A stretch of 64,000 nucleotides of DNA from Candidatus Scatovivens sp. (GTDB lineage Bacteria; Bacillota; Clostridia; TANB77; CAG-508), in the NCBI GenBank assembly GCA_045646345.1, contig JAZRKN010000003.1, forward strand, positions 2,898-66,897. The letters run 5' to 3'. Below are positions 46,814-55,258 of the stretch, in pieces (the stretch's first letter is position 1; each line of letters starts with the position of its first letter). The notes under the pieces are model-generated. The model made no database searches, was not told where the DNA came from, and was given only the letters and a program-made list of their open reading frames with translations. A program made the position numbers and the translations under genes.

Positions 46814-46854
46814 TCAAAAAAAACAAGAAAAAACAAGGTATTGCTACCTTGTTT
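46814..46854 (-). terminator. Terminator closing the 53604-46899 operon
   Basis: Stem acaaggta/taccttgt with a T run on the minus strand. Confidence 0.55.
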
Positions 46855-46898
46855 ATGTAAAATTCTATTCATTAAATTTTATTATAAAATCATTTTAT

Positions 46899-47585
46899 TT
46901 AGTCAATTGACCATCTAATGTTAGACACTTTCTTATCTGCATCTAAATAAAATGTTAAACTAACGTTTTCAAATCGTTCTTCCATTGGAATATAACAATT
47001 ATATGATATATAATTTCCATCTAAATGTACAAAAGCTGTTTGTTCATATTTTTCTGGTAATTTATATTCTTGAGAATATGTATACAAGTAATCACCATAT
47101 AGAAGCAATGCCCACGGTTCATTATTTTTAAATTCATCTTCTAGTTTTCTCTCTTGATTATCATTGTAATATGCGTTTATTACTTCCTCATAAGATGACC
47201 CTATTGCTAGTTCATTAACTAATTTAACATCTTTTCCCGTAACATTTACTGTTCCTAAAGTTAAATTTCCTTTTCCTTTTGTATCAAAAAAAGTTAATAT
47301 TTTATCTTCATATACATAATCTATGTATTCACCATACATAAACTCTGACATTGTCACATGATTGATTTCAATTGGTTTTCCAAAATCTGATTGAACTTCA
47401 TCAGGTGTCATTCCAAAACGTAATCCGTCAATTACAACATCGTTTTTATCGAATTTCATTTTTTCATCACTTATAATAATCGAATTTGTAGAAACGTTAT
47501 CATTATTATTTTTTCTGCAAAAACTCATTCCTACTATTATTGCAATAATAAGTATAAATATAATTGTTATTTTCTTGTTTTTCAT
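46899..47585 (-). CDS. Hypothetical lipoprotein-like secreted protein
   Basis: Signal peptide followed by Cys (…IVGMSFC). Confidence 0.45.
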   Translation of the reverse strand: MKNKKITIIFILIIAIIVGMSFCRKNNNDNVSTNSIIISDEKMKFDKNDVVIDGLRFGMTPDEVQSDFGKPIEINHVTMSEFMYGEYIDYVYEDKILTFFDTKGKGNLTLGTVNVTGKDVKLVNELAIGSSYEEVINAYYNDNQERKLEDEFKNNEPWALLLYGDYLYTYSQEYKLPEKYEQTAFVHLDGNYISYNCYIPMEERFENVSLTFYLDADKKVSNIRWSID

Positions 47586-47623
47586 ATTTCCCTGTTGCCT
47601 CTCTTTTATTCTATATTTAATTT

Positions 47624-49438
47624 CTATTCCATTGATATCTCATCTTGTTTGATATTAGGAGTGCTGCTTTCTTTAGCAAGGTCATCGTTTTCTTTAACAG
47701 TTTCCATTGGAGTTAATTCAGATTCTTTTACCACAACTCTTTCGCTAAATTCTTTTGCACTTCTATTTATTGCATCTATTCCGTCTTTTTCTGTTTTACC
47801 ATATACTAAAATATTGTTCATATTAGGGATTCTTTTAGTTAAAAATTCCAATTGATATGCCGCATTTATAAGTCTTTTTGAAGTATTATTTACTAAATAT
47901 TTAGGATTTAAATTTACTTTGTAATTTGGAAATTTTGTATCGATTCTCACTCTGTCTAGAGCATCAGCATCTCTTACAACCGAATTTAATCTTCTAAGCA
48001 TTTCGATATTTGCGGGATCTTGTATTTTGTATTTTTTAATCATTTTTTCAATTTTATCAGGTTTACCTTCGTGTGCCTCTGCTAATGCCATAACCATTTT
48101 TTTATCTTCTTCAGGAAATGGTGTTCCATCGATATATGTTAAATCCATTTTTGAAATTTTTCTTGCACTATTTCTAGCATGAGGACCATTATCTAAAATT
48201 CTTCCCGCATCATGATACATTGCTGCAGCAGATAAAATTTCTTTTATTCTATTATCATTGTCATTTTCCAATATTCCTTCATTTCTTGCTATTAGCATTG
48301 CCGTTAACGCAACTCTATTTGAATGTTCTTTTCCATGAATTCCCCTTTTGGTTATATCATTCCCGATTTGACCAAATTTCTTTTCAAAGAATTCGCCATC
48401 TTTACTTAAATTAAAATCAGACAAAACATCTTTTAAGTCTAACTGACTTAGTCCTTGTTCACTTTGTAATTTTGCGACCGTTACTGCAAATTTTGGATCT
48501 CTATATGGATTTTTACCTTTAAATGAAAAATCTTCTAGAGTTTCTTCTGGGGATTTTCCAATCGCTTTTTTAAAAGAAAACGTTCTTTTTAATGAATCTA
48601 GCAAATTTTGTCCAACTTCTCTCCAATTTTGAGAAAAATTAATAGCAGCTTCATCAGTTTCCATTCTAAATGCATCTAGTGTAGCAACAGTTTTGGCTAC
48701 TATTTTAAATGTAGGTTCGCCCTTTTTATTTAAATAACCATATTCAATTGCTTTTTCTTTCATAAACTCTAAATAATCAGCTTTTGCATTATACGTTTTT
48801 CCATCTTCTGAAAGTTCTTCTGGATTTGCTTCTCTAAATCTCACCTCATAAGAGCCTTTTTCATTTTTTATTGGATTTCCTGCGTCATCTCTTACTAAAT
48901 CCGGGACCATTTTAACTTTTTCTACAGCATTTTCTGGCAAAATACAATATCCTTCATACATCATTGCACCATCTGTTAATGCTCGACATGTGTAATTTTT
49001 TAAATCATCCATATCCGGAGTAAATTTAATTGCAGTTGCAACTCCAGTAGGATTTATATACGGATTATATTGACTTTCCCATAAATTGTTTTTTAACAAA
49101 GCGTTATTATCCGTTAAATTTTTAGCATAATTATCTGGAGAAGGTGCACCACAAAACATAAATACAGTTTTTCTTCCATATGATGTACTGTGAGATGATG
49201 GTCTAAGATGTTGACTCTCAATTATTGCATCAGCAACACTTTCATCTCTTACAAAATGGTATAAACCTTCTTGTGCTGCCTGTTGTTTTATTTTTTCTGT
49301 TAATTCAAATCTTGGTATTTTCGCAAATAAACCTGCTACTCCACCCACCAATGTATTTACTGATGCTGTTCCAATAGATTTTAAAAATTTGTTTAAAACC
49401 GCATCAGACATTGATACTATCATATCTTCAATTTTCAT
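47624..49438 (-). CDS. Fusion protein: N-terminal unknown domain plus a C-terminal HD-domain phosphohydrolase
   Basis: 604 aa. HD motifs HGKEHSNRVALTAM…AAAMYHDAGR. N-terminus has a Gly-zipper segment GGVAGLFA. Confidence 0.5.
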   Translation of the reverse strand: MKIEDMIVSMSDAVLNKFLKSIGTASVNTLVGGVAGLFAKIPRFELTEKIKQQAAQEGLYHFVRDESVADAIIESQHLRPSSHSTSYGRKTVFMFCGAPSPDNYAKNLTDNNALLKNNLWESQYNPYINPTGVATAIKFTPDMDDLKNYTCRALTDGAMMYEGYCILPENAVEKVKMVPDLVRDDAGNPIKNEKGSYEVRFREANPEELSEDGKTYNAKADYLEFMKEKAIEYGYLNKKGEPTFKIVAKTVATLDAFRMETDEAAINFSQNWREVGQNLLDSLKRTFSFKKAIGKSPEETLEDFSFKGKNPYRDPKFAVTVAKLQSEQGLSQLDLKDVLSDFNLSKDGEFFEKKFGQIGNDITKRGIHGKEHSNRVALTAMLIARNEGILENDNDNRIKEILSAAAMYHDAGRILDNGPHARNSARKISKMDLTYIDGTPFPEEDKKMVMALAEAHEGKPDKIEKMIKKYKIQDPANIEMLRRLNSVVRDADALDRVRIDTKFPNYKVNLNPKYLVNNTSKRLINAAYQLEFLTKRIPNMNNILVYGKTEKDGIDAINRSAKEFSERVVVKESELTPMETVKENDDLAKESSTPNIKQDEISME

Positions 49439-49452
49439 ATTTTTTCCTTTTA

Positions 49453-51087
49453 TTATAAATTATATTTTTTCTTATCTTCATCTGTAAGTTCAAAATATCT
49501 AATTGTAGTATTTTTCTTTTTCCACAATTGAAGTGATTTTTCTCCAATAAAAGTTACTATTCCTTCTTGACGTCCAATTCTATACTTACATGTTTTAAAT
49601 GGAATTGACACTCCTGGTATGTTTGCTATTTGTATTTTCTTTAAATTTGGACAATCAACAATCGCAAAGTTAAAGGCTGATTGAATATTAGAAAATACAA
49701 TTTCATTTAAATTTGTCCCTCTAAAACAATTTATTATATTTTGAGGTCTATCCATTATATAAAGTTTAGGATCACTTAAAAATACTACTTTTGTTAAATT
49801 AGTACATCCTAAAAAAGCATCTTCACCTATATTAATTAATGTTTTTGGAAAAATCAGCGTAGTTAATTGTGAACAATTTTCAAAAGCTCTCTCTCCTATT
49901 AATCCAATTCTGCCAAAATCTACATGTTTTAACTTTAAGCAGTTTGCAAAAGTTTCATTTCCTATGCAATTATAACTTTTATCCGGACTCAAATTAACTC
50001 CAGCGCTCTTTTTTTCCTCAATAAATTCTATCTCTTCTAAGTTTTCCCAAACCGAATCTTTCTCAAAGTTATATTTTGAAATTCCGTTACTTGCAATTAT
50101 CAGTTTCTTAGTTTTAAATATTGTATCTTTATCTAAATATTCTTTAGCATATTTTTCTTCTTCATCAAATTCGACTTTTATTCCTGGTCCCTTATCCGTC
50201 AACCATGCAGAATGCATTCTTTTTTGATTTGTTTTTTCTCTAACATTTGCAAACCAATTTTTAAATCTTTTAATAAAAGATTCTTCATAATATAATTCCA
50301 TTTCTTTTTCTTCATCAGTATTTGGCTGATTATTAAAAATTGTTTTAGAATTATTTTTTTCTTCAATAAAATAATTCGTATTTTCCTTTTCTTGAATACT
50401 TACTATTATTTCAATATGGTCATCTCTAGACCTTATATCTTTAATCATCAAAACTTGTTGCCAAATTTTATAATCATATAAATCTTTTTCTGATGCATTT
50501 TTTGCTAAATCAATTAGCTTGTTTCTTCTAATCTGATTTTCTTCATTTTTAGCACCTTCAAATAGAACTTCTTTTATTGCATTAATTAAAGCTTCTTTTT
50601 TACAGTATTTAAAAACTTTAGAATAATTTATAATCCCTTCTGTTTGCAATTGATAGATGATTATTTCTAATGTAATTTTACCTACTTGTTTATTATATTC
50701 TACTTCTTCTATTGGATTATGAGTCGTTTCATTCCAAAATTTAATATACTCTTCTAAAGTCATCCATAGACCTTTAATTTTTTCTAATGCCGCAGCATCT
50801 ATTTTGTTTTCTATAGCGCTTTCAATAATATTGTTTGCTTTTAAAATATAGTAATCTATTTCTGTATCTAGAAAAATCAATCTAGATAAAACATCTAACG
50901 ATATTTCATCAAAACCTTCATTGTTTTCACTTAATTCGATGTTTTTAGCGTGTTCTTTGATTTGATTTAAAGTATCTTCATATTCAGTTGCTTTTTCATA
51001 ATGATTTAATATTTTTACTTCAACTATTTTATTTTCAATCTGTGAAATTTCTTTCAATAATAAATCAAATTCTTTATTACTTATCAT
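49453..51087 (-). CDS. BspA-type leucine-rich-repeat protein
   Basis: C-terminal repeats …IGNETFANCLKLKHVDFGRIGLIGERAFENCSQLTTLIFPKTLINIGEDAFLGCTNLTKVVF… No signal peptide. Confidence 0.6.
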   Translation of the reverse strand: MISNKEFDLLLKEISQIENKIVEVKILNHYEKATEYEDTLNQIKEHAKNIELSENNEGFDEISLDVLSRLIFLDTEIDYYILKANNIIESAIENKIDAAALEKIKGLWMTLEEYIKFWNETTHNPIEEVEYNKQVGKITLEIIIYQLQTEGIINYSKVFKYCKKEALINAIKEVLFEGAKNEENQIRRNKLIDLAKNASEKDLYDYKIWQQVLMIKDIRSRDDHIEIIVSIQEKENTNYFIEEKNNSKTIFNNQPNTDEEKEMELYYEESFIKRFKNWFANVREKTNQKRMHSAWLTDKGPGIKVEFDEEEKYAKEYLDKDTIFKTKKLIIASNGISKYNFEKDSVWENLEEIEFIEEKKSAGVNLSPDKSYNCIGNETFANCLKLKHVDFGRIGLIGERAFENCSQLTTLIFPKTLINIGEDAFLGCTNLTKVVFLSDPKLYIMDRPQNIINCFRGTNLNEIVFSNIQSAFNFAIVDCPNLKKIQIANIPGVSIPFKTCKYRIGRQEGIVTFIGEKSLQLWKKKNTTIRYFELTDEDKKKYNL

Positions 51088-51111
51088 ATGTATCTCCTAA
51101 AACATAGCTTT

Positions 51112-52455
51112 TTATCTTGTTTCTTCTTTTGAGAAAAAGTCATACTTTCTTCCAAATACTTTGTCAGCATTTTGAAAAGTTGTTCTATTGTATGTATAGT
51201 CATTCTGCATTCCGTCATAAACATCTGCAAGTGCTAATTTAGGTGTAAATGTGGTAAATTTTTTTGGCGTAAAAATTTCTATAATTTCATTTTCCAAAGC
51301 TCTCGCGCCCTCTTTAAATATATCTACCGCATTATTTATAAAATTAACACATGTTCCTAATATACTTCCTTTTTTAGCAAATCTTTCTGCCCAAAACGGA
51401 TCATTAAACTCTATATTTCTAGCATCTTTAATTCGGATCATTCTTTCAAAAATCCAATCAGCAGCTGCAAAAATTTCTGTAGTTATACGTTCTGGAACAA
51501 ATTTATCAATAGCTTTTGAAAAAGAACTCAATCCTTTCGAAACAATATCTTGCTTTCCTCTTTTAGCATTACCTTTATCATCAAAAAGTAAACTTTTTGT
51601 ATCATGTCTTGTTATTACTTTATATTTTATTCTTTCTTTTGGATTATCCTTGTATAATTCATCATTAATATCCAAAAACTCTGATTCTTCTCCTGGAATA
51701 TCAAAAAGCAATGTTCCTACAGCACTCCATTTGTATCTTTTAAGTTTTGGCGCAGCTTTTTTTATCTTTTCTTCATGTTCTGATATATATTCATCAGAAA
51801 CTCCTGGGCCATCAAAATTAATAGATTGATGTATTTTATTAAAAAGAGCTTCTTTTCCGTTCTGCGCAGCAGAAACTGTAAAATGAGAGGCTAAGTTTCC
51901 TCCTAAAGAATGTCCTGTAACCGCTAGAAAATTATATTTATCAATAATTCCTTTCTCTAACAAATATTCTCCATATTTTTCTGCTTCTTCTTGTTGTCTA
52001 GTTTCTCTTGAATTCAAAAGGCCAAAATCAGCCCTTGCCCAGTCATTTACTGCATTAGAAAAGTCGCGCATATTCTCACTTCCTCTGAAAGCTATTATTG
52101 CATTTTTTTCGGAAGTTTCAATGCAGCAAGAAACAAATCCATTTAAAGAATTCAAATCTGTAATATTTGCAATTTTCCAGTCGAACATTTCTGGTGAAAA
52201 TCTTTCAATGATAGATTTGTCGGAATCGCTCAAATCAGAATATTTAACTAATTCTTGTATTGTAATGTCACTTTTGTCTAATCCATCTTGAATAGCTTCG
52301 TAAAAAGCTATTTGTGTATTTATACGTTCTTGTATTAAATTTCTTAATGTATATGGTCCTTTTTTTCCATCAGCTTTTAAATTTTCAGCACTTCTTGATA
52401 AGAAACTCAAATATACTATTTGAGTTGCCTCCTTTAATTCTTTATCAGTATACAA
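51112..52455 (-). CDS. Class-3 lipase-like alpha/beta hydrolase
   Basis: IIAFRGSE… and nucleophile elbow VTGHSLGGNLA. Confidence 0.6.
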   Translation of the reverse strand: MYTDKELKEATQIVYLSFLSRSAENLKADGKKGPYTLRNLIQERINTQIAFYEAIQDGLDKSDITIQELVKYSDLSDSDKSIIERFSPEMFDWKIANITDLNSLNGFVSCCIETSEKNAIIAFRGSENMRDFSNAVNDWARADFGLLNSRETRQQEEAEKYGEYLLEKGIIDKYNFLAVTGHSLGGNLASHFTVSAAQNGKEALFNKIHQSINFDGPGVSDEYISEHEEKIKKAAPKLKRYKWSAVGTLLFDIPGEESEFLDINDELYKDNPKERIKYKVITRHDTKSLLFDDKGNAKRGKQDIVSKGLSSFSKAIDKFVPERITTEIFAAADWIFERMIRIKDARNIEFNDPFWAERFAKKGSILGTCVNFINNAVDIFKEGARALENEIIEIFTPKKFTTFTPKLALADVYDGMQNDYTYNRTTFQNADKVFGRKYDFFSKEETR

Positions 52456-52469
52456 TTTTTCTCTCCTTA

Positions 52470-53123
52470 TTATTTTATAACGATTATATTTTTTTCAAAA
52501 ATTTTAATTATTTTTTCGTTCTTTACATTATATTTATTTATAATTGTTTCCGTTACTGATGGTATTTTATTTGATAGTTCATAAAACTCTTCAAATTTGC
52601 TTTCATCAATAAAATATATTAATGTTCTTAGATTTATGTTGTTGTATAGCTTTTCAATTTCTACATAAATATCCCTTAAATCCTGATCTAAAACATTTTC
52701 AGAACAAACTATATAAGCTAAAAAGTTAGTATCTTTATATTTATCTATAAAATCTAATACATCCATATTTTCATTTAATCGATTCAATCCCATTAATTCT
52801 GCTTTTACAACAACACTTTGAGTATATTTTTTAAATTGTTTTTTAATATTTTCTTGTATCTCTGTTGTAAGTTTTTTTATATAATAATCATCTTCTAATA
52901 TCGTTTCTTCTTTATTTAATGTTGCAGTAAACAATAAGCTCTCATCATTTTTGGGAAAACAAAATGTAGTTACTGTATCATCTGTACTTGTTCCAAATCT
53001 GTTCCCTATCAATTTCACACAAAATTCTTCATTATATTTATCTTTTAATTTATCAGTAATAGACTTACTTATCTCACTATTACTAACACCATTTTCTACT
53101 ATATCAAATATAGATACATCCAT
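52470..53123 (-). CDS. Hypothetical protein
   Basis: 217-aa ORF with a 14-nt gap to the downstream gene. Confidence 0.4.
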   Translation of the reverse strand: MDVSIFDIVENGVSNSEISKSITDKLKDKYNEEFCVKLIGNRFGTSTDDTVTTFCFPKNDESLLFTATLNKEETILEDDYYIKKLTTEIQENIKKQFKKYTQSVVVKAELMGLNRLNENMDVLDFIDKYKDTNFLAYIVCSENVLDQDLRDIYVEIEKLYNNINLRTLIYFIDESKFEEFYELSNKIPSVTETIINKYNVKNEKIIKIFEKNIIVIK

Positions 53124-53136
53124 AATTTTACCTTTA

Positions 53137-53604
53137 TTAACTCCTTTTTCTTAATCCTTTTATAAAATTCAAAAGTTTTGTAAAAATAGTTTTTTTATTT
53201 TCAAATCTATCAATTTTTGCATTTTCAATAGGTAAATTTTTCTTTTCTGCATTATCTGTATTTTCATCAAAAAGATTATTTGATATTTTTCCAAATTGTA
53301 TGCTTAATTGTTTTTGAAATTTTATTTCATTTTCATTCAATTTATCATAAAATTCTTTTTTATCATTTTCATTTTCACACCAATAGTTATAAGCAATATA
53401 TAAAATTATCCCTTTAGCATCATCAGATAGTTCTAAATCCTTAAGAGCTTTGGTGTAATCTAAATTACATATATACTCTTTTTCTTCATTTTCGTTTAAA
53501 AATTCCAAAAAATTACTTGGTATTTTTTCCAGATCCTCTTTTCTAATCCCTTTTAGATATACATTTACTTCTCTAATAGCTTTAGCATATTTTATTGAAT
53601 TCAT
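53137..53604 (-). CDS. Hypothetical protein (first gene of the operon)
   Basis: 155-aa ORF. Confidence 0.4.
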   Translation of the reverse strand: MNSIKYAKAIREVNVYLKGIRKEDLEKIPSNFLEFLNENEEKEYICNLDYTKALKDLELSDDAKGIILYIAYNYWCENENDKKEFYDKLNENEIKFQKQLSIQFGKISNNLFDENTDNAEKKNLPIENAKIDRFENKKTIFTKLLNFIKGLRKRS

Positions 53605-53749
53605 TTTTTCTCCTCGTATAATAAATAAAGATTTTATCTTTTCTTTTGTATTTGCTAATCTACCTAAGTATAGATATATCTATTTTTTCATATACAGAAT
53701 TTTAAGTCAATAAAAACAAAATTAAATTAATATATCATTTTATTTACAT

Positions 53750-53806
53750 TTTCATCCCCCAAAAAATAAAAGATAAATATTAGTTTACCTCTAACATTTA
53801 TCTTTT
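53750..53806 (-). terminator. Terminator ending the adhE-kinase-HD-HD unit
   Basis: 10-bp stem aaagataaat/atttatcttt with a T run on the minus strand. Confidence 0.55.
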
Positions 53807-53832
53807 ATAAAAAAACTTAAAATTTAATTATA

Positions 53833-54600
53833 TTATCTTTCTTCTAGTTCATCTACAGTTTTAAATAAATTTTTATAGCTTGTTTCACCAGGTTCTTGTG
53901 CTAATAAATGTTCTCTTGATGAAACATGATTTACTTCGCAATATCTATTTTTAAATTTTTCTCCATCATTCAATAACATTCTCATATCATGTAAAAAGTT
54001 CTCGTATGCCTCATCAGCATAAAACATATTTTCTGGATTTTCTGTTCCATAACGTTTTCTTAATCTTTGAAGCGTAAACTCCAAAAATTCCTCTATTGAT
54101 TTATCTGCCATTTTTCTTTTTCCTACAAAGAAACTTCGTATAAATACCATTTCTATTGTTGTATTTCTATCTGCTGAAGATACCAATTTTCCATAATCAC
54201 TTCTAGGCATATCTTCTAAAGATGAACTGTGGTCTTCTATTGCCTCTTTAATTATTTTTCTATCTTCTTCGTTAAAAAAATTAGCGAATCCTATGTTGTT
54301 TGCAAATCTTCTTGCAGCTATTTTGGCATGTTTTTCACCTGTTTCATGTTCTTCATATTTTCCAACGTCATGAGATGCTGCAATAGTATAAATCATATTT
54401 GGGTCTAATCCTAAATTCAATTCTTTATTTAAAACAAATGATCTTCTAATAACCTCTAAAATATGTAAAATCCCATGTCCTTGATCATTTTTTGAATACT
54501 CTGGAAAAATTTTTTCTTCAACATATTTTTTTAATTCTATACTTACTTCTTTTGTACACTCTTCATAATTTTTTATGCTACTATCTGCAAAATTTCCCAT
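53833..54600 (-). CDS. HD-domain phosphohydrolase (paralog B)
   Basis: HILEVIRRSF…AASHDVGK…SSADRNTT. Confidence 0.6.
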   Translation of the reverse strand: MGNFADSSIKNYEECTKEVSIELKKYVEEKIFPEYSKNDQGHGILHILEVIRRSFVLNKELNLGLDPNMIYTIAASHDVGKYEEHETGEKHAKIAARRFANNIGFANFFNEEDRKIIKEAIEDHSSSLEDMPRSDYGKLVSSADRNTTIEMVFIRSFFVGKRKMADKSIEEFLEFTLQRLRKRYGTENPENMFYADEAYENFLHDMRMLLNDGEKFKNRYCEVNHVSSREHLLAQEPGETSYKNLFKTVDELEER

Positions 54601-54601
54601 A

Positions 54602-55258
54602 TTAATTTACCATACCTTCTAATTTTTTAATATAATTCGCTTGAATTTCACAAAATTCTTTTTCGTCTTTTAATATTTTTCGTATCTTAGTTAAAAACCC
54701 CTCATATTCAGAATCTTTTAAAAAGAATTTTGCATAGCCTCTTTCTCCAAATTTTTCATTCAAATGAAAAAAAGCTCTTTTATATAATTCTATATCAGTT
54801 GCATTCGGATCTAGTCTTTTACCATAGTAATAACTTCTTTCTAAACATTGTTCTACTGTATTATTTCTATCTGCTGATGAAACAATTCTTCCGTATATAC
54901 TTCTTGGTTCATGATCTGATGATGCTCTATGATCTTCAATTGCTTCTTTTATAATTATTCTCTCTTCATCTGAGAAAAACTCTTTAAGTTTTTCATCTTG
55001 ATACATAATTTCTGCCGAAACTAATTCATGCTTTTTAGGATCTATATAATGACCTATATCATGGTAAGATGCTATAACAAAAACAAAATCTTCATTTACA
55101 TTTAAATCATTCTGTTCCAGCAATTCAAAACTTCTTTTTATAACATAGTTAATGTGTCTTATATCATGTGCTTTCTCGTTTTTCTCGTACTGAGGAAATA
55201 TATTGTTTTCAATATATTTTTTCAAAATTTGATTTATTTTATCTGAATATTTTTCCAT
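54602..55258 (-). CDS. HD-domain phosphohydrolase (paralog A)
   Basis: HINYVIKRSF…ASYHDIGH…SSADRNNT. Tandem paralog of 53833-54600, separated by a 1-nt gap. Confidence 0.6.
   Translation of the reverse strand: MEKYSDKINQILKKYIENNIFPQYEKNEKAHDIRHINYVIKRSFELLEQNDLNVNEDFVFVIASYHDIGHYIDPKKHELVSAEIMYQDEKLKEFFSDEERIIIKEAIEDHRASSDHEPRSIYGRIVSSADRNNTVEQCLERSYYYGKRLDPNATDIELYKRAFFHLNEKFGERGYAKFFLKDSEYEGFLTKIRKILKDEKEFCEIQANYIKKLEGMVN

Follow-up and report, generated by a model that had tools for sequence, protein, structure and literature searches.

A candidate lipase toxin/immunity cassette and its probable passenger genes in a six-gene unit of Candidatus Scatovivens

Six closely spaced minus-strand genes, here designated g1 to g6 from the 5′ end, are enclosed by two terminators in a 64-kb window of Candidatus Scatovivens sp. 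DNA (the whole stretch that was analysed, 64,000 nucleotides of contig JAZRKN010000003.1), and the question raised by this locus is whether the six genes constitute one system or an assembly of unrelated ones. A sequence-only reading of the window had described a mixture of domains in these genes (leucine-rich repeats, LRR; a lipase; an HD phosphohydrolase; a lipoprotein) and had implied a single six-gene system. Here the families, predicted folds and genomic distribution of the genes were surveyed. The six genes are probably a mosaic and not one system. The conserved unit is g1-g2-g3, because g4, g5 and g6 fail to recur with it beyond one close relative, and the explanation which we favour, at about even confidence and on the strength of sequence comparison, is that g1-g2-g3 is a lipase toxin/immunity cassette serving bacterial antagonism.

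The co-occurrence of the genes was analysed in a set of 95 related loci. The genome scan with g3 provided two loci from metagenome-assembled genomes (MAGs), L001 and L002. In L002, a Clostridia MAG from roe-deer caecum, the order HD255-g1-g2-g3-g4-g5 is kept at 46-82% identity without g6 and uvrB (HD255 is the HD-domain gene of 255 amino acids, aa, upstream of the unit), and L001, a Candidatus Scatovivens locus, holds g1-g2-g3 only. The three genes are found together in the window, L001, L002, L012, L013 and L019-22, and beside g3 homologues of 41-54% identity g1 and/or g2 is placed directly upstream and the downstream genes are unrelated. Among the 95 loci g4 was seen in L002 alone, a close relative, and g6 has a homologue in none. 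Homologues of g5 (35-60% identity) are solitary in unrelated housekeeping neighbourhoods at nine loci, with settings such as queA-g5-tgt (two lineages), spoVT-g5-alaS-like, holA-x-g5-uvrB-uvrA, hemN-like-g5-hrcA-grpE and ogg-g5. The region adjacent to uvrB also varies among close relatives (L009 and L012, with uvrB identity of 81-88%).

The implied single system was therefore not borne out, as only g1-g2-g3 recur together among these loci. A new pathway or defence system made up of all six genes, with the lipase and HD activities cooperating with LRR sensing, is now very improbable. The tight spacing, the bounding terminators and the synteny of the g1-g5 plus HD255 block in L002 are in favour of such a system, but the synteny is uninformative since L002 is so close a relative, the more distant loci split the set (the g5 family stands alone in nine and g6 is never seen again), and g1-g3 are present without g4-g6 in at least ten loci; the co-occurrence data have already largely refuted it. 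The genes thus fail to co-occur, as the sequence-only reading had envisaged for the case of its being wrong; its companion thought, that each gene would then belong to a well-characterised pathway, does not apply, as g1, g2, g5 and the g3 family are without experimentally established roles.

The product of g3 had been called a lipase from its GHSLG motif, and this assignment was confirmed. The protein matches the Pfam family PF11187 (Mbeg1-like/DUF2974; 44.7 bits with a cut-off of 21.1, E-value 1.4e-11) and Lipase_3 (25.5 bits, cut-off 22, E 1.3e-5) and has the motif GHSLGG. Across 30 homologues there is no variation in the segments FRGSE, DW, GHSLGGNL (with Ser183), FDGPG (Asp215) and RHDT (His284), and the enzyme is considered intact because these triad motifs are invariant, Asp215 and His284 being placed in the triad by conservation and not by structure. 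The best sequence match with a solved structure is the lipase effector 7ubz of a type VI secretion system (T6SS), which is marginal (E 0.017, family profile) and covers the nucleophile region only; the NCBIfam scan gave a weak SA1320_fam match only. The C-terminal tail of g3, of about 125 aa, is clade-specific. As a separate observation, a Zn-dependent phospholipase C gene is located directly upstream of g1-g2-g3 in L012 (6072-6767), and another lies beside a short Mbeg1-like gene in L010 (1082-2833), 8 kb from a g5 homologue, so that genes of two different phospholipases adjoin.

The product of g2 gave no Pfam family at E <= 0.1 and no NCBIfam or PDB sequence match, and nine of ten remote relatives were also without a Pfam family at this threshold, the tenth being the g2::lipase fusion P0306. 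In P0306 (448 aa) about 139 N-terminal residues of a g2-like protein are joined to a complete lipase, which is either a genuine fusion or an artefact of frameshift or assembly. The AlphaFold2 model of g2 (predicted local distance difference test, pLDDT, 87; predicted template modelling score, pTM, 0.83) matches one solved structure in Foldseek, the DUF5037 protein RUMGNA_01148 (PDB 4gl6, E 7.9e-10), with template modelling (TM) scores of 0.68/0.63 over 216 columns, and g2 is predicted from this model to be DUF5037-like, a membership by fold only and with no sequence match. No functional literature was found on the DUF5037 family. A profile search of 1.8 billion representative proteins gave 356 relatives of g2, the closest 30 or so of which have no signal peptide and most of the remoter ones of which start with a lipoprotein signal (...LIGC, ...VSGC). 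The start of g2 in the window, MDVSIFDIVENG, has no hydrophobic segment and no lipobox.

The association of this family with the lipase was found to be close. In all three loci of the T7SS (type VII secretion system) type that were first examined, a g2-family gene, there encoding a lipoprotein, stands directly upstream of the lipase gene. The scanning of metagenome contigs with the lipase alignment gave 78 further loci, which were then searched with local hidden Markov models (HMMs). Upstream sequence of at least 700 nucleotides (nt) was available for 79 lipase genes, and in 68 of these cases, the window included, the next gene upstream belongs to the g2 family and has the same orientation; the spacing is -94 to +132 nt and, with a single exception, -94 to +41 nt. 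With the use of a signal-free g2 profile these 68 partners were classified as lipoproteins (37), signal-less (24) or with another signal (2), and five were left without a class. The locus L028 has three consecutive tandem pairs of g2-family lipoprotein and lipase (9986-16759), and L017 has two tandem g2-family lipoproteins with a lipase fragment of 135 aa; these tandem copies are reminiscent of the diversification pattern of polymorphic toxin/immunity loci. As the order of partner upstream and lipase downstream is that of tilA-tslA (PMC10730906), we infer from the genomic context that the g2 family may be the cognate inhibitor (immunity protein) of the g3 lipase family.

The context of the relatives is that of type VII secretion. 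Distant g3 homologues of 29-37% identity (P0161, P0171) carry a C-terminal WXG100 domain and are located in type VII secretion loci. The locus L015 encodes an FHA-FtsK EssC-type ATPase and, further along, WXG100 genes, a lipoprotein, a lipase::WXG100 fusion and a WXG100 protein in this order, and L016 has WXG100 genes, DUF4176 and an NADase toxin. Among 27 lipoprotein-type loci of at least 8 kb, WXG100-like genes are present in 23 and an EssC-like ATPase in 14, and nine lipases of lipoprotein-type loci have a WXG100-like tail. Lipases of this kind have been noted at variant T7SS loci, and the clostridial subtype T7SSf has an FHA-bearing ATPase, which that of L015 resembles (PMC11217815). The phospholipase toxins TslA and TslM are neutralised by adjacent immunity proteins and have a "reverse" architecture, with the lipase N-terminal and the targeting helices C-terminal (PMC10730906, PMC13560087). 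The distant g3 homologues with a C-terminal WXG100 domain have this architecture. The clade of the window differs from these relatives in its signal-less g2, in a g3 tail with no homology to the WXG100-like tails and in the addition of g1.

This context also bears on another explanation, that g3 is an ordinary housekeeping or nutritional esterase or lipase and that g1 and g2 are helpers of its folding or activation, like lipase-specific foldases, and not inhibitors. That g2 and g3 are strictly adjacent and follow one another on one strand would fit an obligatory partnership of any kind, no biochemical role has been proven for Mbeg1-like proteins (PMC6867899), and the Zn-dependent phospholipase C genes beside the module in L012 and near the Mbeg1-like gene in L010 are in keeping with this explanation. 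The relatives, however, lie within T7SS toxin loci and have WXG100-like tails, and their partner genes occur as diverged copies in tandem, a typical trait of immunity genes. Many partners are moreover surface lipoproteins while the lipases have no Sec signal, and a foldase needs to be in the same compartment during folding. We consider the helper explanation improbable.

The third member, g1, gave no significant Pfam, NCBIfam or PDB match and has no WXG100 similarity, and its profile remained at chance level against PDB. It precedes g2-g3 in nine loci including the window, is fused to g2 in P0221 and L021, and is found directly upstream of the lipase with g2 absent in L024-26, L029 and L030. 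This pattern suggests a small cytoplasmic accessory protein tied to the lipase module. Paralogues of g1 are present in other contexts (window 9164-9676 and L001 3341-3859), and the role of g1 may be that of an accessory protein in cassettes of this kind generally. The paralogue of the window (E 5e-19 with the g1 HMM) belongs to a second small cluster at 7137-10407 on the minus strand, together with a 257-aa protein starting with CYHTTKIKFLQSILKDGL, a pentapeptide-repeat protein (8502-9140) and a 437-aa protein, and this cluster could be another toxin/immunity-type cassette sharing the g1 accessory family. The C-terminus of the 437-aa protein (YRG...STS...QRE) recalls, by eye, the R-S-E ADP-ribosyltransferases, with no database match in support. 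The 257-aa protein was considered as a homologue of the N-terminal domain of g5 for its similar "YHTT" start and was rejected, as the HMM gave no match.

In the cassette which we favour, g3 would be the effector, a catalytically intact serine lipase or phospholipase that damages membranes, g2 would bind it one-to-one and block it in the cytoplasm of the producer, and g1 would be a small accessory subunit of the g2-g3 pair, fused to g2 in some genomes and replacing g2 in others. The cassette would be derived from those of type VII secretion loci in which an immunity lipoprotein is encoded upstream of a lipase toxin of reverse arrangement, and its lipoprotein signal peptide and WXG100-like targeting tail would have been lost in the window. 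The genes g4, g5 and g6 would be unrelated passengers in a variable region beside uvrB.

Several findings weigh against this proposal. The g3 protein lacks a signal peptide, Pfam gives no WXG100 or LXG match for it, and its tail shows no homology with the WXG100-like tails found in relatives, the hhalign alignment with them being limited to the 26 residues that end the lipase domain; the tail of TslA is itself recognisable by structure only. A WXG100 HMM made from L015 and L016 found no open reading frame (ORF) in the 64-kb window, which also has no EssC-like one, and WXG100-like and EssC-like ORFs are likewise absent from all eight g1-type loci that are 8 kb or longer. Known T7SS lipase toxins act extracellularly and are neutralised by extracellular immunity proteins, and in such a mode a g2 confined to the cytoplasm would leave sister cells unprotected. 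The protein g1 is not lipase-specific, since it has paralogues in other contexts, and the co-transcription of all six genes, although probable, is read from their spacing alone. A cytoplasmic g2 does not by itself exclude export, because at least five T7SS-linked loci (L032, L041, L075, L079, L081) have a clearly signal-less g2 partner and because the ExiAB complex offers a precedent (PMC12744356).

Much the same findings lead to a different use of the lipase, in which g2 and g1 hold g3 inactive inside the cell until a trigger such as phage infection or loss of the locus, whereupon the cell's own membrane is destroyed, as abortive infection or addiction. This would agree with the lack of secretion signals in g1, g2 and g3, with the specific loss, in the g2 clade beside g3, of a lipobox that many family members have, with T7SS markers being present in no g1-type locus, with a g3 tail that shows no homology to the T7SS-type tails, and with the variable neighbourhood, which in relatives has genes of a defence-like kind (in L002 TIR-NB-ARC-TPR and RyR, in L001 an AAA_15/23 ATPase, in L012 RhuM). 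But PADLOC-DB v2 gave no match at E <= 0.1 for the six proteins and the two HD proteins encoded upstream, in agreement with the sequence-only reading, which had recognised no known defence system; neither g1 nor g2 has an evident sensor-like domain; signal-less g2 partners are found in T7SS-linked loci as well; and the missing of T7SS genes within 10 kb is weak evidence, as the genes of T7SS effectors often lie elsewhere than at the secretion locus. A self-directed lipase is the main rival of the cassette reading, a possible explanation and an unlikely one. A further reading, about as unlikely, takes the g1-g2-g3 clade for a lipase toxin/immunity pair of type VII style that was domesticated and now acts entirely within the cell; if this is true, abortive infection or addiction would have a new, lipase-based system, an interbacterial weapon turned into self-directed defence.

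The anatomy of the unit is given in Table 1. The layout of the sequence-only reading was exact in its coordinates, strand and spacing of 13-38 nt, the gaps from g1-g2 to g5-g6 being 13, 14, 24, 14 and 38 nt, and no structure was found in the two gaps that were folded (g3-g4 and g5-g6). The terminators it had placed at both ends are each a hairpin with a U-run, and both fold better than shuffled sequences. The upstream hairpin is the stronger of the two (free energy -16.7 kcal/mol, z = -4.3, none of 200 shuffles as stable) and coincides with the inverted repeat I12; the terminator scan missed it because there are too few G-C pairs in its stem. The downstream terminator (-13.1 kcal/mol, z = -3.9 against shuffles) sits just before the uvrB promoter region. 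The promoter candidate of g1 alone is not above chance and has its position between the terminator and the ribosome-binding site of g1 as its sole support; promoter-like matches across the region were fewer than in shuffles (44 against 65.9) and were given no weight.

Table 1. Features of the six-gene unit and its boundaries (positions in the window).
Feature	Position	Strand	Size or description
5′ boundary terminator, upstream HD gene	53760..53808, hairpin ~53808-53766	(-)	18-bp A+T-rich stem, then AUUUUUU
Sigma-70-like promoter candidate 5′ of g1	53682..53710	(-)	TTGACT-17-AAAAAT, extended TG, 9/12 consensus positions
g1	53604-53137	(-)	155 aa
g2	53123-52470	(-)	217 aa
g3	52455-51112	(-)	447 aa, TTG start
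g4	51087-49453	(-)	544 aa
g5	49438-47624	(-)	604 aa
g6	47585-46899	(-)	228 aa
Closing intrinsic terminator	46821..46854, hairpin 46854-46831	(-)	scan match, 10-bp stem + T-run

Just inside the terminators the unit is flanked by a 28-nt imperfect direct repeat of 82% identity (46874-46901 and 53719-53746, core ATCATTTTATTTA), and the search for flanking repeats around the unit gave short A+T-rich matches only. The pair is probably a chance match in A+T-rich DNA, since the left junction is present in L002, which lacks g6. The window is a clostridial chromosome segment of ordinary type and low GC (~27%) whose composition profile has no distinct island, with uvrB and uvrA downstream of the unit and two HD genes, a kinase-like gene and adhE upstream. 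The tblastn search of g3 against plasmid and phage collections gave zero matches, so there is no evidence of a mobile-element origin.

The two upstream HD genes (53833-55258, minus strand) are tandem paralogues encoding stand-alone HD-domain proteins of 255 and 218 aa, and share a 129-nt stretch of 73% identity; the former, HD255, is syntenic with the cluster in L002. Counting g5, three HD proteins are encoded within 8 kb. The possibility of the HD domain of g5 being a recent duplicate of HD255 was rejected, the pairwise E-value being 0.049. In L002 (8549-13136) g5 is followed by an RyR-domain protein, a 613-aa protein without assignment and a TIR-NB-ARC-TPR protein (STAND/Avs-like), a defence-type neighbourhood, and the equivalent variable spot is occupied by an AAA_15/AAA_23 ATPase in L001 and by RhuM in L012.

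For g4 the reported BspA-type LRR was found at the C-terminus (LRR_5, 57.5 bits with a cut-off of 27.7, E 1.7e-15; PDB 4fs7 at 1.8e-22 and 4gt6 at 1.5e-16). Its N-terminal half is unmatched, it has no signal peptide, the PHROGs scan gave LRR PHROGs only, and it is regarded as a lineage-specific passenger gene. Apart from this LRR match and the weak SA1320_fam match of g3, the PADLOC, PHROGs and NCBIfam scans of the six proteins gave nothing useful. The product of g6 has an N-terminal hydrophobic segment and Cys23, as expected for the lipoprotein that had been proposed, but its box G-M-S-F-C is atypical and a signal anchor is equally possible; with no family or PDB match, it is possibly a membrane-anchored or lipidated orphan, judging by its N-terminus.

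The 604-aa protein encoded by g5 is, as had been described, a fusion of an unclassified N-terminal domain (about residues 45-235) to an HD phosphohydrolase (about 365-545), with residues 371-496 corresponding to HD and Ppx-GppA domain III. The family has 64 homologue clusters, nearly all of the same two-domain length, and the AlphaFold2 model has a pLDDT of 82. The protein scores 32.7 bits with Pfam HD (cut-off 22) and 28.3 with Ppx-GppA_III (cut-off 27.3); H372 and D490/D495 are invariant in the family and H409 nearly so. The fold of the HD domain matches Ppx/GppA domain III and cyclic-nucleotide phosphodiesterases at a probability of about 1.0 but with E >= 0.014. In the N-terminal domain Tyr60-His61, Tyr149, Arg152, Asp156, Gly163 and Cys165 are invariant and Ser86-Tyr87-Gly88 and Glu162 near-invariant; its profile matched no PDB sequence, and fold searches of the whole model in PDB and BFVD returned HD-domain matches only. 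The glycine zipper noted earlier is present as a segment, but as an insertion limited to the closest relatives and of low model confidence. The assignment of the N-terminal domain to Tox-ART-HYD1 (PF15633) was not adopted, since two of 17 members matched, at E 0.012-0.016 and 16 bits (cut-off 25); these partial matches span profile positions 1-26 only and are a lead at most.

Further observations were made on the g5 family. In the subclade P0060-P0064 the HD dyad is changed to HE or NE, the "GPHA..SARK" segment is deleted and the N-terminal domain is kept, and in this lineage the phosphohydrolase activity may be dispensable. In L005-L008 (P0045, P0060) the homologue lies between the queuosine tRNA-modification genes queA and tgt in two separate lineages, and several other g5 loci adjoin aminoacyl-tRNA synthetase genes, which may hint at an RNA- or nucleotide-related role of the family.

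If the cassette reading of g1-g2-g3 is true, Clostridia of gut and rumen would have toxins in their Mbeg1-like/DUF2974 lipases, and the DUF5037-like proteins, the solved 4gl6 included, would be the cognate inhibitors of these, so that two role-less families gain testable predictions. Besides DUF576 and DUF1433, the g2 family may be a third immunity family for T7SS lipase toxins of the reverse type. The three-gene variant without signals raises the question of what use a lipase toxin has when toxin and inhibitor are both cytoplasmic. The survey also removes a false lead, as the LRR, HD and membrane proteins are outside the lipase system, and it presents g5 as a separate, widely conserved two-domain family worth its own study.

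Among the known systems the nearest is the Tsl1 cassette TslA-TilA-TlaA1/TlaA2 of the Staphylococcus aureus T7SSb (PMC10730906), a comparison based on architecture and gene order and not on TslA sequence. Common features are an N-terminal GxSxG lipase with a Ser-Asp-His triad, followed by a C-terminal region without catalytic function, and a partner gene, that of the immunity protein in Tsl1, which directly precedes the lipase gene on its strand (order tilA-tslA-tlaA1-tlaA2); distant g3 homologues are moreover located in T7SS loci, where the gene of a lipoprotein partner precedes them and WXG100 partners accompany them. The window differs in that g2 is cytoplasmic and DUF5037-like, whereas the immunity protein of Tsl1 is a DUF576 lipoprotein, in having g1 as an extra upstream gene, and in lacking downstream Tla-like helical genes and any T7SS genes in view. 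The Tsl2 cassette TslM-TilM-TlaM (PMC13560087) combines one WXG100 partner and a neighbouring immunity family with a lipase toxin of the reverse kind that has a phospholipase domain, and L015, with its lipoprotein, lipase::WXG100 and WXG100 protein, has the same parts list; its Til2 immunity proteins, by contrast, are DUF1433, signal-anchored and divergently encoded, while the partner in the window is soluble, of another family and without a WXG100 protein.

DUF2974 domains also occur as a toxin module in antibacterial effectors of the type IV secretion system (T4SS) and of T6SS/Rhs (PMC6536674, PMC11854122). The T6SS Tle/Tli pairs, the DUF2974 X-Tfe effectors (T4SS) and the Rhs effectors share with the proposed cassette the combination of a lipase effector and an adjacent cognate inhibitor, and differ in Gram-negative delivery and periplasmic immunity, their similarity to g3 being marginal. 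Mbeg1 of Gemella sanguinis, the founder of PF11187, belongs to the same Pfam family as g3 and is known only from a screen for NF-kB induction by E. coli clones, with no partner genes or biochemistry (PMC6867899).

For a cytoplasmic inhibitor the closest parallel is EsxX, a membrane-damaging T7SS toxin which is neutralised before export by the soluble two-protein complex ExiAB, with ExiCD acting at the membrane (PMC12744356). EsxX is a glycine-zipper depolariser, the toxin and immunity folds are unrelated to those of the cassette, and an outward-facing immunity counterpart, as ExiCD is, was not found in the window. ExiAB co-occurs strictly with the esxX gene, and g1 and g2 show the same pattern with g3. 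Among the reverse lipase toxin/immunity cassettes of T7SS, that of the window is probably a new variant without signals.

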